DNA from: an uncultured Bacillales bacterium
GTDB lineage: Bacteria > Bacillota_I > Bacilli_A > RF39 > UBA660
Direction: 5' to 3'
Assembly (NCBI GenBank): GCA_949948745.1
Contig: CATLHA010000005.1
Coordinates: forward strand, 12,740 to 76,739
DNA length: 64,000 nt
Each line of letters begins with the position of its first letter. Position 1 is the first letter of the stretch. The translations under genes and the position numbers were made by a program. A model generated the notes under the pieces. The model saw nothing but the letters and a program-made list of their open reading frames with translations. It ran no database searches and was not told where the DNA came from. Below are positions 33,887-50,301 of this stretch, one piece after another.

Positions 33887-35128
33887 TTATCGTTTATTTA
33901 ATTTTTTTATATACATATTATACATTGTTTTATTGATTACTAAATCAAATTCTCCAATATATTCAATCGCACTAGCATTAAATCCTAGTTTCATTTCATT
34001 TAATCCAGAATATTTATTCTTTTCATTAAATTCTCCGGCGATACCATTTAAATTGAAGTAACTGTATCCTTCGTTATTAAATTTCTTTATTAGTTCCCAT
34101 TTTAGTAGGTAGTTTGAATTATAACTACGATAATTTTGATCAAATCCTTCAATAATTAGATTTATTCCTTTATCATACTTAATAATTAAACATCCACCAA
34201 TTGTAACTCCTTCTTTATGTTCTTGGAAAAGATTAGTAGCAGTCGCTAGATTTTCATGATATAGTCCTAATCTTTTATCTGATTCCATTTTATCATTAAT
34301 GATTTTTGTTACATTTTTTCCACGGATACTTTTTTGCTGTAATAATTGATTTAACTCTTCATTTTTTGTCATTTCCTTTTGATAGGCTTCTTGACTATTT
34401 TCTATATACTTTGCCGGATTAATGTGAGCGAAGTATATTTCTGCATTATCATTAAAGTTTTCTAGAATAGAACGATAATATTTTAGGCTTTTATTTTGTT
34501 TTCGTTTGATAAATTCATATAAAGTTTCTAAATCTTCGATAGAACCCTTTTTAATTTCAATTCCACATTTATTTGCTTTATTGATTTTATTTCTTATATT
34601 TTTAGATAATAAATAATATAATTTTTCGTTTGATGTAATTAATTTTGTAATTGCTGTCCATCTTGGTTTATTATTTTCAAAAAATTTATTAAAACCATGA
34701 TGAATATATCCATTCTTTTGTAGTATTTCTAATACATTATTGATTTCTGGATTATAGGAGATAATTTGTCCATTCTTTTTTCTTTCTGCACAATGAATCA
34801 TTGGATTTATTTTTATGTATAAAAATTTTTGTTTAAATAATAATTTTCTTAATTTAGTAGTTAGTTCTTCTACTAAATCATTATTTGTATAATCTATTAA
34901 GAAACCATATGGTGCATAAGCAAATTTATATCCCCAATAAACGGTTTTATAGATTAACATTGCTGCACCAATTAGTTCGTTACTATTGTTTTTAAATCCT
35001 AAGAAGTGGTGGTCATATCCTTCTACTTTCATAACACGACCATAATTAGAGGTTTGATATAGGTTGCGATATTTGTGTTTTTTCGCAAAGGTATCAAATT
35101 CTTCTTCATTTAATGTAACAATTTTCAT
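33887..35128 (-). CDS. FemABX-family aminoacyltransferase (peptidoglycan interpeptide bridge formation, FemX/MurM-like)
   Basis: 413 aa, typical Fem length; N-terminal NEEEFDTFAKKH...QTSNYG pattern and a central coiled-coil region typical of Fem proteins. Confidence 0.65.
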   Translation of the reverse strand: MKIVTLNEEEFDTFAKKHKYRNLYQTSNYGRVMKVEGYDHHFLGFKNNSNELIGAAMLIYKTVYWGYKFAYAPYGFLIDYTNNDLVEELTTKLRKLLFKQKFLYIKINPMIHCAERKKNGQIISYNPEINNVLEILQKNGYIHHGFNKFFENNKPRWTAITKLITSNEKLYYLLSKNIRNKINKANKCGIEIKKGSIEDLETLYEFIKRKQNKSLKYYRSILENFNDNAEIYFAHINPAKYIENSQEAYQKEMTKNEELNQLLQQKSIRGKNVTKIINDKMESDKRLGLYHENLATATNLFQEHKEGVTIGGCLIIKYDKGINLIIEGFDQNYRSYNSNYLLKWELIKKFNNEGYSYFNLNGIAGEFNEKNKYSGLNEMKLGFNASAIEYIGEFDLVINKTMYNMYIKKLNKR

Positions 35129-40203: not shown

Positions 40204-40599
40204 ATGTTAGTTCAAAATGTAAAGTGTTATTTAGAGTTGTTTCGAATAAGAAATAGTGTAATAAAATTAAATCCTACAACTCTTTCTTGGGATAGAGTGC
40301 CACTTGATTCCCATGAAGTTTCCATAGAAAATATTTTACCAGAGGAATCTATGCCACTTATTCTGTATCAAAAATATGTATGGACTAAAAAAAATTCAGA
40401 GAATAAGTATGACTATTTGTTTTCTCCATCCAAATATGAGTGGAAATTAGTTTCTACTTTTTGTTCTCGATTTTTTTATGACGAATATGAGGATGAAAAC
40501 GAAAAATTAGTGGCGACACCTTATGAAGCAATTACGGAGCAGCAATATCAAGAATTGTTGGCATTTGAATCAAGAAGAGAGTCTCATAAAAAACGATAG
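40204..40599 (+). CDS. hypothetical protein
   Basis: 131 aa, acidic, no recognisable motif. Confidence 0.4.
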   Translation: MLVQNVKCYLELFRIRNSVIKLNPTTLSWDRVPLDSHEVSIENILPEESMPLILYQKYVWTKKNSENKYDYLFSPSKYEWKLVSTFCSRFFYDEYEDENEKLVATPYEAITEQQYQELLAFESRRESHKKR

Positions 40600-42029: not shown

Positions 42030-42070
42030 AAAGGAAGAGTTTTGGTTTTGAACTGACTCTTCCTTTATTT
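42030..42070. terminator. bidirectional terminator between the convergent eno and LRR genes
   Basis: aaaggaagag / ctcttccttt 10-bp stem with a 17-nt loop, T-rich on both sides; overlaps the LRR gene stop. Confidence 0.5.
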
Positions 42071-45000
42071 TATATATTTTTTTGAATCTGTACCTTTCTT
42101 TTGATTTTTCTTAAAAGAATTTATTTTATGTACAATAAAATTAATTATGTTTTTTTCCTTTGTTGTTGCTGTTAAGGTTTCTGTTTCTTCCTTTATCTCA
42201 ATATCTTGATTCTTTATTCTTTCAGGTTTTCCTGTTCCTTTTTTGAAAGTGACTCTATGCATTGTTAAATTTGGATTTTGTTCTGACCTTATAGTTTTTT
42301 GTTTTCTTAATATCTCTTGTTGTTGTTCTTCTTGATAAATGCTTTTTGTATCTTTATCTTCATATGGATAGCTAACATCGTCTCCAATTTGTTCTACATA
42401 TCCAAGTTTTTTATTTATTAAATATAGTAAGTAAGAAGTATCTTCTTTTAATTCTGCTTCTATTGTGTCATATTTTTCTAGCAAACTATAGATTGTATGC
42501 ATTATTTCATTATTTTGCATTCCTTTTTCATCTTCTAGCGCAGGCTCTATTTTTGCCAAATCGGAAATATAGATATTATTTTCATCTTTTTCTTCATAGA
42601 TTAGATACCAATCCTCTCCTAGATAAATATGATTGTCTTTAAAATCCATCATGGTAGAATCCTCATGATTTATCATATTTTCTGGATAAGCTTTCTTTTC
42701 CATCTCTTTTATTTGGTTTATTGTATAATCTCTTATTTGATTTTCTTGTTCTAGTACGACTCTTCTTTCATCACGATAAATAGGTACTAGTGGTTTTTCT
42801 AAAAAAACAAAATCTTCTAGACTTCCAGCCATAATATATTGTTCTTTTTTAGCATCAGAATAAGCCGCATAAGAAGAATCAAAATATATCTCTTTTGAGT
42901 TATAGTTTATTGGCTGAAAATTTTTCAAAGTAAAAGTTTTTCCATTTATAAATTGATCTTCATTTACATATAGCTTAATCTTAAAATACTTACTAAGTCC
43001 CAAATCGTCATATCTAGTACCGCTAGTGACCATTTTAATTGCTTCTCTTTGTTCTAATTCGTCTAGTTTTTTTAATTCTTCTTCTTTATTTGAAATGAAA
43101 GATTTTTCTAATGTTTTCTTTCTTTTCTTGATATAGTCTTCTATTTCTGTTTTACTCTGTTTTATTATAAATTCAGCATCTAATCTGAATGCTTCGGCTA
43201 CAGCTTCTTTTAACTCTTCTGGTCCTTCCGTTAGAAGGGGAGTTCCTTCAATGTTATCATGACAGTAAAGATTATTATTCTGCCAGTCCCAAGATTCTGT
43301 TAATAATACCCATTCTCCATCTTTTAATAGTTTGGTTACGAAGATTCCACCATCGTCGCTACATGTAGCATGTGCCATACAATTTTGTCCTGCTCCACCA
43401 AAGATTTGACAGCAGTTTGTATAATTTTTTTCTCCTACCAGTAGGCTAAATGGATCATCCTTTCTTAGAAGTTCTGCTTTGATAGTGTATCCATTAATTT
43501 CATAAACATTGCTTCTTCTAATTAAAGAATATAATTTTCTTATCTTATTTTTCTCATAAATGTTTTGATAGTAATCAAAGGCCCTTTGCTCAGTTACTCC
43601 TGCTTTTTTAACTTCTTTCTGAAATTCAAAATTTCCAGGATTATATTTAAATGACTGATTATTAATATAATCTAGTGCTTGTTTTATTGTTATTTCTTTA
43701 CTTCCTGATGTGTATAGGTAATAATCTTTCATATTTTTAAAATGAAATTGAATATCTTTGATACTTGCCTGTATTTTTTCCTCTTCTAGAATAATATCAA
43801 GATTCTCCATAAAAAAATTATAAAAATCAGGGTCAAATACCTTATTGCACCCATCAAATATTCTGTGGAGTGTAGGAAAATTGATATATCCGTTTAAATT
43901 TTTTTGATATAGTAAATCAATTACTTTTTCATCATCTTTTGCTTCTTCTTTTAGTTCATATACCGTTATATGTTTCAATTCGTAATTTTCTTTAAAAAAT
44001 TGATTGATTTCTTTGCCATAAGTTCCAGTGAGTTTTTTAATTCTTTTTCTTTGTTTCTCTGTCATAAGAAGACCTAAATATATTTGAAATTCAGTTGGAA
44101 TTTCTGTAGCTGTTCTGCTATAATATGGTTTTATTGTTTTCGTAAATGCATTTTTTAATATGTCACTTTCTATATTATAATGAAACTCTGATATAATGTA
44201 TGATTTTATGGAAAATAATTCTTTAAACTGTTGGATTCTATTTTTTTGTTTTTCGTCTTTATGAAATAGTCCAAATATTTCAATCATTTCGGCAAATGCT
44301 TCTGCTAGTTCTTCTGTATTATAAGAAAAACTATCTTTGATTTCATTCCATACTTTAAAATCAAAATTTTTTGTTGTATTTAATGATAAATGTGGGAATA
44401 AAATAGATGGAATATTATATTGGTTTCTCATTTTATAAAATAGATTTTTGAATTTTTCGATGGCATTACTTTCATATATTATGGACGATTTTAATGTTTT
44501 TAATATATATCCATTTCTACTTATAAACTCATCGATATTATTATACTTTTCTTTTAAGATAGAATTTGCATATAGATATAAATAATTTATAATGATATCT
44601 ATTGTTGCAGGATTTTTTAATTCAATTTCTCCATAAGGGGTTATTAATTTTAATGATTCATTAACTCCATCAAAGGCTAAAGCTTCTACACTTTTTATAT
44701 TTTTGTGAAGAGATAGTTCTTTTGCAGATTTACAAAATAAAAATGCTGCTTCTTCTATATCGGTAATGTTTTCTGGTATGTGAATGCATTTTAAAAATGT
44801 ATCTTCAAATACACTTTTTTCAATTTTAGACATATTTTTTGGAAATTCTATTTTTTCTATTTTTGTTCCGCTAAAAGCTCCGGGTTTTATAGTGGTTACA
44901 GTTCCTGGGATATTAATATCTCTTAAATTACTGCATTTTTCAAAAGCGCTATGTTCTATACTAATAACACTTTCTGGTAATACTATCTTTTCTAATGAAC

Positions 45001-45478
45001 TGCATCCTCTGAAAGTTCTTTCAGAAATTGTAGTTATATTTCTTGGAAGAGTTACATTTTTAAGATTATAACACCTAGAAAAAGTAAATCGTTCAATATG
45101 ATCTACATCATTTAGGAAAATGGCAGTTTCTAGTGAAATGCACTCCGTAAATGCATGGTATCCTATATGGGTTACATTTTCTGGAATTGTTATTTCTTCT
45201 AGTGAATAACATTGGCTGAAAGCCTGATTTCCAATACTAGTAACGCTTTTTGGGATTATAATTTTCTTTAAATTATGGCAATTAATAAAAGCTAAATCGT
45301 CGATACAGGTTAGACCTTGGTTTAGATAGATATTCTGTACTTTTTTACAAGTAGAAAAAGCACAACCTTCAATTGTAGTTATATTTTCAGGGACGGTAAA
45401 ATTGAATGTTTCAGTTTTTGCATCAAAAATAAGATCTTCCTCTGTTACTTCTTTTAAAATGCCATTTTTAATTTTCAT
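42065..45478 (-). CDS. very large leucine-rich-repeat protein (BspA/TpLRR-type N-terminal repeats + ~850-aa uncharacterised C-terminal region); no signal peptide
   Basis: 1137 aa; about 11 tandem 22-23-aa repeats of the form IPxxVTxIGxxAFxxCxxL (LRR_5-like); C-terminus has a Cys-rich patch (NCCQIFGGAGQNCMAHATC) and coiled coils; the N-terminus is hydrophilic. Confidence 0.6.
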   Translation of the reverse strand: MKIKNGILKEVTEEDLIFDAKTETFNFTVPENITTIEGCAFSTCKKVQNIYLNQGLTCIDDLAFINCHNLKKIIIPKSVTSIGNQAFSQCYSLEEITIPENVTHIGYHAFTECISLETAIFLNDVDHIERFTFSRCYNLKNVTLPRNITTISERTFRGCSSLEKIVLPESVISIEHSAFEKCSNLRDINIPGTVTTIKPGAFSGTKIEKIEFPKNMSKIEKSVFEDTFLKCIHIPENITDIEEAAFLFCKSAKELSLHKNIKSVEALAFDGVNESLKLITPYGEIELKNPATIDIIINYLYLYANSILKEKYNNIDEFISRNGYILKTLKSSIIYESNAIEKFKNLFYKMRNQYNIPSILFPHLSLNTTKNFDFKVWNEIKDSFSYNTEELAEAFAEMIEIFGLFHKDEKQKNRIQQFKELFSIKSYIISEFHYNIESDILKNAFTKTIKPYYSRTATEIPTEFQIYLGLLMTEKQRKRIKKLTGTYGKEINQFFKENYELKHITVYELKEEAKDDEKVIDLLYQKNLNGYINFPTLHRIFDGCNKVFDPDFYNFFMENLDIILEEEKIQASIKDIQFHFKNMKDYYLYTSGSKEITIKQALDYINNQSFKYNPGNFEFQKEVKKAGVTEQRAFDYYQNIYEKNKIRKLYSLIRRSNVYEINGYTIKAELLRKDDPFSLLVGEKNYTNCCQIFGGAGQNCMAHATCSDDGGIFVTKLLKDGEWVLLTESWDWQNNNLYCHDNIEGTPLLTEGPEELKEAVAEAFRLDAEFIIKQSKTEIEDYIKKRKKTLEKSFISNKEEELKKLDELEQREAIKMVTSGTRYDDLGLSKYFKIKLYVNEDQFINGKTFTLKNFQPINYNSKEIYFDSSYAAYSDAKKEQYIMAGSLEDFVFLEKPLVPIYRDERRVVLEQENQIRDYTINQIKEMEKKAYPENMINHEDSTMMDFKDNHIYLGEDWYLIYEEKDENNIYISDLAKIEPALEDEKGMQNNEIMHTIYSLLEKYDTIEAELKEDTSYLLYLINKKLGYVEQIGDDVSYPYEDKDTKSIYQEEQQQEILRKQKTIRSEQNPNLTMHRVTFKKGTGKPERIKNQDIEIKEETETLTATTKEKNIINFIVHKINSFKKNQKKGTDSKKYIK

Positions 45479-45623
45479 ATTATCACAATCCCTTTACTAT
45501 ATATTAATTATAAGTTTTATTTGATACTTCTACAAGTAGTTTTAGTATTTCTAGTTTTTTGTTTGATTTTATTGTGTATTTTGATATTTTTGTTATAATA
45601 ATAATATTTTAAAGGAGTTAGGT

Positions 45624-46142
45624 ATGGAAAGTAAATTAAGTAATATTAGAATTACACCAACAGTTATTTATCATTCCGTTGTCTCTTTTTTTAAGAAAAA
45701 GAGTATGGAAAAATTTAATGGTTATTTTTTATCAACCTATGAGGAGCTAAATTTTCGCTATCCTAGATTAACTATAATTCAACTATCAGGATTTGGTTCT
45801 TTTTATCGGAGTTTTGAAAATGGAGAAATTTCTTATCAGGAACTTTTGAAGGAGTTAAAATCTTTGGGTATTAATATAACAGATTCTATTGTTTTTAAAG
45901 AAATTTCTCTAAAAAATGAAGAAGAAAAGGAAGCATATAGAAAGCGAAAAGAAAACGAGGATTATTTGCCTACAGATATTCTTGGAATTTGTTATCAAGT
46001 TCCAAAGACAAGAGAAACTCGTCTTCTTTTAGGAAATGATTCCTATATTACGAGATTGTTAGCCGAATTAGGAGATGAGAGAGCTACTAAGGAAGTAAAT
46101 GAGGATTATTATTTAGAAAAGAATAAACTAAAACAAAAATAG
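45624..46142 (+). CDS. hypothetical protein
   Basis: 172 aa; no recognisable motif; divergent from the LRR gene. Confidence 0.4.
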   Translation: MESKLSNIRITPTVIYHSVVSFFKKKSMEKFNGYFLSTYEELNFRYPRLTIIQLSGFGSFYRSFENGEISYQELLKELKSLGINITDSIVFKEISLKNEEEKEAYRKRKENEDYLPTDILGICYQVPKTRETRLLLGNDSYITRLLAELGDERATKEVNEDYYLEKNKLKQK

Positions 46143-49948: not shown

Positions 49949-50301
49949 TGGGGCTGTCATGGTTTCGACAGGATTAGTGGAACAAGAGTGGCAAGTAGAT
50001 GGCAATCTTAAAATGCGTCAGTTAAATATAACTGGAAACAATTATCAAATGGCTTTCGCTGCTTAATAAAGCATATAGCGAAGCGCTTCTTTAAAAGTCA
50101 TACCTGTGGACTTTTTTAGAGGCTCGATTTTTACAGGTTATATTACTATGACGTCTATAGTAGTGATGAATTTTATAGACTGGCTATATCAACATTCGTT
50201 AACTAGTTTTTGATATAGTGAGATTGTTTAGTTAACTAAACTTGTAGATATTCTTGAGGATCTAGTTTTGGACAGGAGTTCGATTCTCCTCAGCTCCACC
50301 A
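49949..50301 (+). ncRNA. ssrA: tmRNA (SsrA), 353 nt; encoded tag (A)GNNYQMAFAA
   Basis: 5' GGGGCUG...UUCGACAGG acceptor/T-arm pairing with 3' GGACAGGAGUUCGAUUCUCCUCAGCUCCACCA; the resume context UUAAAUAUAACU-GGA matches B. subtilis ssrA as recalled; tag ORF gga...gct gct taa taa at 50034-50066. Confidence 0.9.

Follow-up and report, generated by a model that had tools for sequence, protein, structure and literature searches.

Proteins of the GNAT (Gcn5-related N-acyltransferase) superfamily are built on a core fold with the order β1-α1-α2-β2-β3-β4-α3-β5-α4-β6(-β7) (PMC4964394). Their acyl-coenzyme A (CoA) is held in the V-shaped splay between β4 and β5, with a β-bulge in β4, and the α1-α2 segment, β3, the end of β4, and β5 are the elements from which the acceptor site, the oxyanion bulge, and the general base are formed (PMC4964394). 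The P-loop of GNAT motif A, Gln/Arg-x-x-Gly-x-Gly/Ala, lies on the N-terminal side of α3, and atypical P-loops occur in several genuine GNATs (PMC4964394). In the characterized tandem GNATs VipF, MshD, CBG, and GlmA, only one of the two lobes is active, which is the C-terminal one, and the conserved residues of VipF line the groove between the lobes (PMC10936415). Here, we analyzed a stretch of 64,000 nucleotides (the window) from an uncultured Bacillales bacterium of the lineage UBA660 (GCA_949948745.1, contig CATLHA010000005.1, positions 12,740 to 76,739), in which a gene between eno and secG encodes a protein of 1,137 amino acids (aa) that starts with a leucine-rich-repeat (LRR) array. The region from aa 291 to 1080 of this protein is predicted to be a helical domain followed by a tandem GNAT fold. 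We tentatively propose, with a probability of about 0.45, that the protein is a non-secreted modular acyl- or aminoacyltransferase that is aimed at its target by the LRR domain.

Predicted fold and conserved signature of the C-terminal module

Residues 290 to 1137 have no match in Pfam, NCBIfam, PADLOC, PHROGs, or, by phmmer, the Protein Data Bank (PDB) sequences, even at E values of ≤1 to 10, and a search of the PDB sequences with the family profile was likewise negative; these sequence searches together gave only matches at chance level, to EF-hands and a Dsb protein (E = 0.05 to 0.1). In addition, no curated GNAT model in Pfam or NCBIfam (Acetyltransf_*, FemAB, ATE, Leu_Phe_trans, and Autoind_synth) matches outside the LRR part at an E value of ≤1. 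The preliminary description of this DNA, which was made from the sequence alone, called the C-terminal region unassignable; for the sequence libraries this is correct, but structure prediction gives a helical domain and two GNAT-fold lobes. The AlphaFold2 model, which covers residues 291 to 1080 and was built from a 79-sequence alignment, has a mean predicted local distance difference test (pLDDT) score of 91.3 and a predicted template modeling (pTM) score of 0.78. The top 50 Foldseek matches to the model are all GNATs, with weak E values, and the order of its secondary-structure elements corresponds to two GNAT-like units. GNAT-A, the first unit (approximately aa 655 to 885), is also found to be a GNAT in the structure search when it is folded alone, and diamine and hydroxylysine acyltransferases are among its best structural neighbors. 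Because the same PDB chains score 2 to 3 Z units higher against the whole model than against GNAT-A alone (10.4 versus 7.4 for 5isv_A, 10.2 versus 7.9 for 1ygh_B, and 10.4 versus 7.6 for 8osp_C), a second and better-matching lobe must exist at approximately aa 905 to 1080. This lobe, GNAT-B, shows the standard GNAT topology β1-α1-α2-β2-β3-β4-α3-β5-α4-β6-β7 (aa 908 to 1079). The predicted structure thus contains both the core α/β order of a GNAT and two lobes in one polypeptide, GNAT-A being seen by folding it alone and GNAT-B by the gain in Z together with its topology. No sign of a duplication was detected in the sequences of the two lobes, with an hhalign probability of 0.4% between their trimmed sub-alignments. 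The coiled coils that had been described for the region correspond to a long helical hairpin within GNAT-A (Table 1), whose helices span model residues 464 to 502 and 508 to 522.

The Cys-rich patch mentioned in the preliminary description is real: it belongs to the most conserved stretch of the family, a signature block that extends from D675 (D675...GEKNYTNCCQ...C..H...DGGIF.T...LLTESWDW.N..YCHDNIEGT). Among 251 family sequences aligned to the GNAT-A hidden Markov model (HMM), S729 and E744 are present in all, D741 and W732 in 250 each, C690 in 249, C739 in 248, W730 in 247, Q691 in 246, H703 in 239, C689 in 233, and C700 in 209, and G682 and D675 are likewise nearly invariant across the family. 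C689, C690, Q691, and H703 map to the α1-α2 segment of GNAT-A, S729, W730, and W732 to β3, C739, D741, and E744 to the end of β4 or just after it, and T818 and G820 to β5. Since these conserved residues map to the parts of the fold that make up the active site in GNATs, the Cys-rich patch is probably the signature of the active site of the family. The CCQ loop has the lowest confidence in the model (pLDDT of 66 to 72), as we would expect if the loop needs a metal or a ligand to become ordered. A universal four-Cys zinc site was considered and rejected, as C700 is replaced by Ser in 34 of the 251 sequences and C739 is replaced in the most distant relatives; in most members, a metal site formed by C689, C690, H703, and C739 is possible from the residue pattern. 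GNAT-B, structurally the more standard of the two, is the less constrained lobe throughout the family and shows poor conservation among the wider membership, since its HMM recognizes only 130 of the 263 sequences detected by that of GNAT-A.

One of the motifs of the helical domain, F-G-x-F-x-x-D...R, is nearly invariant (FGLFHKD at aa 402 to 408; window positions 44254 to 44275) and shows a weak alignment (E of about 0.1) to the helix-loop of the EF-hand in caltractin and myosin light chain. The resemblance is probably due to chance, yet it is the sole sequence lead for the helical domain.

The module differs from the described systems that are closest to it. It has no detectable sequence similarity to the tandem GNATs MshD, CBG/ORF14, GlmA, and VipF, and the 1,137-aa protein is three to four times larger than these, with an LRR head, a 350-aa helical domain before the lobes, a helical hairpin of approximately 60 aa in GNAT-A, no consensus P-loop in either lobe, and its sequence-conserved lobe at the N-terminal rather than the C-terminal position. 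Compared with the single-domain GNATs RimI, Ard1/Naa10, Naa50, NatD, and Gcn5, which acetylate protein N termini or lysines, it shows identities of 4 to 13%, no Acetyltransf_* match at an E value of ≤1, and an acidic DEKG.Q in place of the P-loop. The siderophore N-acyltransferases (the DfoC N-domain, MbtK/Rv1347c, EryM, and SidF), which act on hydroxylated diamines or amino acids, have no sequence relationship with it; the operon of the stand-alone module described below lacks the N-hydroxylase and the NRPS-independent siderophore (NIS) synthetase of their pathways, and the CCQ/H/SWDW/CHDNIE signature is matched by no sequence library searched. FemAB/FemX proteins have a bilobed GNAT fold with a helical arm, but FemA ranks only 26th, and hhalign gave a probability of 0.06% between the family profile and the FemAB protein encoded in the window itself. 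The N-terminal 290 aa, as in the BspA/TpLRR surface proteins, form a bona fide LRR_5 array. Unlike those proteins (HupY/LrrG), the 1,137-aa protein lacks a signal peptide, an anchor, and a C-terminal domain of the adhesin type; the NCBIfam HupY model matches the LRR part only, with 88.7 bits against a cutoff of 1,250. The remainder is predicted to have an enzyme-type, tandem GNAT fold and is no adhesin or S-layer domain, in keeping with the earlier view that the protein does not resemble adhesins. Literature searches for combinations of LRR and GNAT domains found no described precedent or relevant paper, and none that describes the module. The module therefore represents a GNAT-fold family that is new, large, and unannotated and in which repeat domains would do the targeting, although it is not a categorically new system.

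Repeat heads, paralogue arrays, and a stand-alone operon

The first approximately 280 residues match Pfam LRR_5 (PF13306, BspA type) with an E value of 4e-84, and the array, which comprises about 10 to 11 units of 22 to 23 aa over aa 27 to 277, directly follows a hydrophilic N terminus, as had been described. This N terminus, M.IVNN.L..V...DI..G...IP.GVT.I (aa 1 to 35 of the 1,137-aa protein, at window positions 45373 to 45478), is common to the LRR-bearing members among the proteins compared (P0002 to P0079), and the N terminus of the non-LRR members, M..IIEKI...L.I.ELKK.I..G.I.Y..FP..I, resembles it. The conserved element may be a common cap or an unrecognized signal. Localization was judged by Kyte-Doolittle hydropathy over segments of 19 residues and by a check for LPXTG, as a proxy for signal-peptide and membrane prediction. 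The most hydrophobic segment of the 1,137-aa protein has a value of 1.05, compared with 3.01 for the SecG homologue encoded two genes away, and the protein has no LPXTG anchor. No signal peptide or membrane segment was found by this measure in the 79 close relatives, except for P0027, probably with a miscalled start, and P0008, with a marginal value of 1.62, or in 135 distant relatives, among which there was one marginal value of 1.81. From this absence of export signals, we infer that the protein is cytoplasmic, in line with the preliminary description, which had reported neither a signal peptide nor an anchor.

A search with residues 291 to 1137 alone returned 79 clusters. Most of them share 44 to 55% identity with the query across 93% of the region and, like it, start with LRR_5 arrays, whereas the N terminus of some ten relatives that are roughly 30% identical consists of helical repeats other than LRRs. 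Among species-representative genomes, the family is confined to metagenome-assembled genomes (MAGs) of uncultured gut "Bacilli" (from rabbit, Hadza, and other sources) and two very distant Clostridia. A word-indexed homology search with an alignment of distant members was swamped by LRR words and gave only 16 LRR proteins. An exhaustive profile search with an LRR-free alignment and no word index, in which sequences were clustered at 50% identity, yielded at least 1,311 cluster representatives of the module at an E value of ≤1e-3 and 263 at ≤1e-30. The family proteins are 700 to 1,860 aa long, and many of them measure 1,200 to 1,860 aa and carry the module C-terminally. The part preceding the module is 0 to 587 aa long and is of the LRR_5, DUF4116, or an unassigned type; of 31 distant members, two have LRR_5, two have DUF4116 repeats, and 27 are without any Pfam domain. 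None of the family members examined has an informative name, one being labeled "hypothetical protein".

The LRR-bearing members are always found amid housekeeping genes, such as eno and secG, recA, uvrC and trpS, or, in several MAGs, between gmk-rnhB and cvpA-trx-ftsAZ. They often occur in several copies, with three in tandem in one MAG and at least five around rnhB in another organism. In one tandem trio, the LRR parts are 44 to 56% identical, whereas the modules are 79 to 88% identical. Within the same gene pairs (L003:6778-16247 and L005:4999-8445), the synonymous divergence (dS) is 0.17 to 1.12 in the LRR part and 0.03 to 0.18 in the module, i.e., 2.6 to 9 times higher in the former. As dS is so much higher in the LRR part of the same gene pairs, the two halves have different histories, probably because the module underwent gene conversion, because LRR cassettes were exchanged, or for both reasons. 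No diversifying selection on the LRR part was seen, with ratios of nonsynonymous to synonymous divergence (omega) of 0.40 to 0.84 and never above 1. The variable N terminus suits the earlier suggestion that the LRRs are a recognition domain on a cytoplasmic, effector-like protein.

Several paralogue loci have further features. The array of at least five copies around rnhB (L028:2555-23384; Joint Genome Institute [JGI] sample 3300006149) is interrupted by a gene for a 1,911-aa protein with NPCBM and F5_F8_type_C (discoidin) domains, which is probably a glycan-binding giant. Downstream of recA at L022:8001-20752, a distant member of 1,583 aa is followed by giant genes of 1,291 aa and >1,586 aa without a Pfam domain, and together these may form a further tandem array of paralogues that have diverged. 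Other genomes hold one to three intact copies at the rnhB-cvpA locus, but the family copies found there in two Hadza/BRZ MAGs are split into two or three open reading frames (ORFs) by a stop codon (L009:5413-8352) or by multiple frameshifts (L013:5119-8424), and these are either pseudogenes or assembly errors.

The module also occurs without a head. In three Clostridia-type genomes, head-less modules of 743 to 780 aa are encoded, with stop/start codon overlaps, within an operon of the same gene order: (ornithine/diaminopimelate decarboxylase), PALP enzyme, ATP-grasp (ATPgrasp_ST), arginase family protein, unknown protein of approximately 400 aa, ornithine/arginine decarboxylase, head-less module, Ddl-like ATP-grasp, radical SAM protein, and RsgA. 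Between the genomes, identity is 49 to 83% for the neighboring gene products and 45% for the module, which diverges most; the operon modules are only 25 to 30% identical to the module of the 1,137-aa protein. The operon sets the module in the context of amine and amino acid chemistry, which agrees with the diamine and hydroxylysine acyltransferases found as structural neighbors of GNAT-A. It resembles a so far undescribed pathway for the synthesis of an amine/polyamine conjugate or for cell-envelope modification. Literature searches on the operon found nothing relevant.

Gene boundaries and surroundings

The ORF of 1,137 codons is exactly as given in the preliminary description, and its position between eno and secG, convergent with eno, is borne out by the ORF and synteny data. 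In-frame TAG and TAA codons at positions -7 and -6 relative to the ATG make an N-terminal extension, and with it a hidden signal peptide, impossible. The spacer of 53 nucleotides (nt) between eno and the gene holds a hairpin that folds with -22 kcal/mol (z = -5.75) on the plus strand and -12.6 kcal/mol (z = -3.78) on the minus strand and is followed by a U-rich tail on each strand. A strict terminator scan, whose criteria limit the loop to 3 to 8 nt, reported none near this hairpin; the hairpin is plausibly a bidirectional intrinsic terminator, and the shared terminator proposed earlier is a reasonable reading. The GC content is about 27%.

Table 1. Features of the LRR-GNAT gene and loci of the stand-alone operon. 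Positions are those of the window, except for the operon loci, which are given by contig.
Feature	Residues	Position	Strand	Basis
LRR-GNAT gene ORF	1,137 aa + stop codon	42065..45478	-	ORF list; ATG start; uninterrupted
Hydrophilic N-cap and BspA-type LRR array (variable targeting domain, putative)	1-290	44609..45478	-	PF13306; unit register
All-helical domain (predicted), with motifs FGLF..D....R (aa 402-414), KKL.G.YGK.IN.F, and AGV..Q.AF.YYQ	291-645	43544..44608	-	DSSP on model, pLDDT about 90; conservation
GNAT-A (predicted), lobe with the invariant residues of the family	646-900	42779..43543	-	predicted structure
Signature block, including the Cys-rich patch	675-746	43241..43456	-	counts in 251 sequences
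Long helical hairpin (predicted), inserted between assigned β4 and β5 of GNAT-A	754-812	43043..43219	-	helices in model
GNAT-B (predicted), standard GNAT order; motif-B-like LYLINKKLGY (aa 1018-1027)	901-1080	42239..42778	-	predicted structure
Unconserved Lys/Arg-rich tail (24.6% K+R)	1081-1137 + stop codon	42065..42238	-	column occupancy 0.1-0.2; composition
Ribosome-binding site AAAGGGA (45495-45489) and in-frame stops TAG, TAA (45499-45494)		45489..45499	-	read from sequence
Intergenic hairpin common to the ORF and convergent eno; 2-nt overlap with the ORF stop codon		42030..42066	both	folding
Operon loci of the stand-alone module	743-780 aa	L020:364-10177; L027:920-12124; L021:74-7372

The gene is surrounded by the core genes murD, eno, secG, rnr, smpB, and the transfer-messenger RNA (tmRNA) gene. 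A near-identical protein (P0001), with one residue different, is encoded on three JGI metagenome contigs, and the two of these that are shown (L001 and L002) have the same synteny. The tmRNA gene is located at 49950 to 50301 on the plus strand, directly after smpB and an HD-domain gene, and encodes the tag GNLKMRQLNITGNNYQMAFAA. Contig L001 has the block from eno to smpB in common with the window, and three serine-recombinase genes lie just past it (L001:444-3188); the window and L002 instead carry a gene of 262 aa at this position, which suggests that an element has integrated at ssrA in one strain. At 33887 to 35128 on the minus strand, the window encodes a FemAB-family protein (a GNAT-fold aminoacyl-tRNA transferase), with murD and two ABC exporters nearby; given these genes, the source organism has a cell wall, unlike its wall-less Mollicutes-type relatives.

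Two orphan ORFs are found close to the gene, both on the plus strand: one of 172 aa (45624 to 46142) adjoins it, and one of 131 aa (40204 to 40599) is separated from it by eno. Both are also called as genes in L001 and L002, the contigs of the same species, and neither has a match in Pfam, NCBIfam, PADLOC, or PHROGs. The link with the 172-aa gene that had been suggested in the preliminary description is not supported, as no homologue of this gene, or of the 131-aa ORF, was found beside any other family locus. A conserved partner was also rejected more generally: there are no neighbor homologues, and the recurrent gmk, rnhB, cvpA, trx, and ftsA/Z are housekeeping genes in lineage synteny.

Proposed function and competing explanations

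In the proposed mechanism, the LRR solenoid (aa 27 to 277) would be the exchangeable part and bind a specific macromolecule, probably a protein, and the constant module (aa 291 to 1080) would be the catalytic part. The reaction at GNAT-A would be the transfer of an acyl or aminoacyl group onto an amine, for which D741 or E744 would serve as general base; this transfer is suggested because the near-invariant residues lie on the elements that form the cleft for the acceptor and the acyl donor in GNATs. The Cys/His cluster may bind a metal or serve as a covalent acyl carrier, and GNAT-B would probably serve as the second lobe, in support of GNAT-A or for binding of the donor, like its counterparts in other tandem GNATs. 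By changing the head on a constant module, the paralogues would point the same chemistry at different targets. The proposal is supported by near-invariant polar, Cys, and His residues on GNAT active-site elements, by a variable head on a constant body, by the lack of export signals in the protein and its relatives, and by the precedent of the characterized tandem GNATs, in which only one lobe is active. The gene is neither an adhesin nor an artifact. Catalytic activity, the choice of the active lobe, the donor, the acceptor, and the biological role are inferred from the predicted structure and the context.

Several points weigh against this proposal. No sequence profile detects the GNAT relationship, and the assignment comes from predicted structures only. 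The clustering of the invariant residues in space would follow from the topology rather than from measured distances. The consensus loop for the CoA pyrophosphate, [QR]xxGx[GA], is absent from the β4-α3 junction of either lobe in each of the 79 members checked; acetyl-CoA becomes a less likely donor for this reason but is not excluded, because several genuine GNATs have atypical P-loops. In addition, the conserved lobe is N-terminal here, whereas the active lobe is C-terminal in the characterized tandem GNATs. No gene for a partner, substrate, or regulator is linked to the LRR-bearing members, whose neighbors are housekeeping genes, and PADLOC (PADLOC-DB 2.0) gives no match for the 1,137-aa protein or its two orphan neighbors, which lie in housekeeping flanks without a defense island. 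Finally, omega is 0.4 to 0.8 in both parts, with no signal of positive selection in the LRR part.

The operon bears on a different explanation, in which the protein is a small-molecule enzyme for the N-acylation or aminoacylation of an envelope precursor or of a metabolite of the polyamine or diamine type, and the LRRs only scaffold, localize, or regulate it. The stand-alone form probably does act on such a metabolite or precursor. For the LRR-bearing proteins, we consider this explanation unlikely, as the operon members are merely 25 to 30% identical to the module of the 1,137-aa protein, none of the other operon genes accompany the LRR forms, and arrays of up to five or more LRR paralogues with diverging heads are hard to explain for a single metabolic step.

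The paralogue arrays would also suit an intracellular sensor-effector of phage defense or abortive infection, in which the LRRs recognize a phage protein and the GNAT module acylates an essential component of the host or the phage. GNAT toxins acetylate charged tRNA. The family is non-secreted, its arrays are expanded, the type of N-terminal domain varies on a constant enzymatic module, and the recognition domains diverge rapidly and are apparently exchanged like cassettes; the two split copies (L009 and L013), if they are not assembly errors, would be pseudogenized. Still, such a role is rather improbable: PADLOC finds nothing, no neighbors typical of defense islands or mobile elements were seen in flanks consisting of eno, secG, rnhB, recA, and uvrC, and the protein has neither an NTPase switch domain nor an antitoxin-like partner, with omega below 1 in the LRR part.

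LRR arrays of the BspA type are a typical feature of proteins that are located at the surface or interact with a host, and the adhesin HupY/LrrG is the best NCBIfam match, through the LRR part alone. The carriers are all MAGs associated with the gut, Legionella VipF is a precedent for a tandem-GNAT effector, and the conserved N terminus of the LRR members could be an unrecognized signal as well as a cap. The protein might then be an effector or adhesin that is exported by a non-classical route (lysis, vesicles, or an unrecognized signal) and, like VipF, acts on host or competitor cells. We regard this as quite improbable, since no Sec/Tat signal, membrane segment, LPXTG, or other anchor is found in more than 200 family members, secretion-system genes are not consistently adjacent, and the module in its stand-alone form is an ordinary cytoplasmic enzyme encoded in an operon. 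The least credible explanation, and a very improbable one, is a GNAT-fold scaffold without catalysis that acts by binding, with the Cys/His cluster as a structural metal site only: the consensus CoA loop is missing from both lobes, C689, C690, H703, and C739 resemble a Cys3His ligand set, and the loop with the Cys ligands has the lowest model confidence, but D741, E744, S729, and Q691 are near invariant at the positions of GNAT catalytic residues, the conserved DNIE and SWDW blocks are not explained by metal ligands alone, and the stand-alone form belongs to an operon made of enzymes.

For the LRR-guided transferase proposed here, the tandem GNAT fold together with the near-invariant Cys, His, Asp, and Glu signature turns an unannotated sequence into a testable enzyme hypothesis and names the residues to mutate, and the amine/polyamine-like operon of the stand-alone module offers an independent route to the reaction of the module. 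The at least 1,311 clusters of giant proteins without a Pfam or NCBIfam match to the module indicate the size of the gap in knowledge. In a broader and speculative interpretation, which we hold to be improbable, these proteins would be a class of enzymes, so far unrecognized, that modify proteins inside the cells of gut Firmicutes under the guidance of repeats, and their expanded, recombining paralogue arrays would be a diversifiable immune or effector repertoire. If this is true, exchangeable heads (LRRs, DUF4116-type helical repeats, and others) would aim an unusual Cys/His-containing GNAT module at different invading or host proteins, in functional analogy to the LRR innate immune receptors but with a built-in acyltransferase in place of the NTPase switch. 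The fusion of LRRs with a predicted GNAT module and the head-shuffling paralogue arrays suggest a general strategy of one chemistry for many targets in uncultured gut bacteria.

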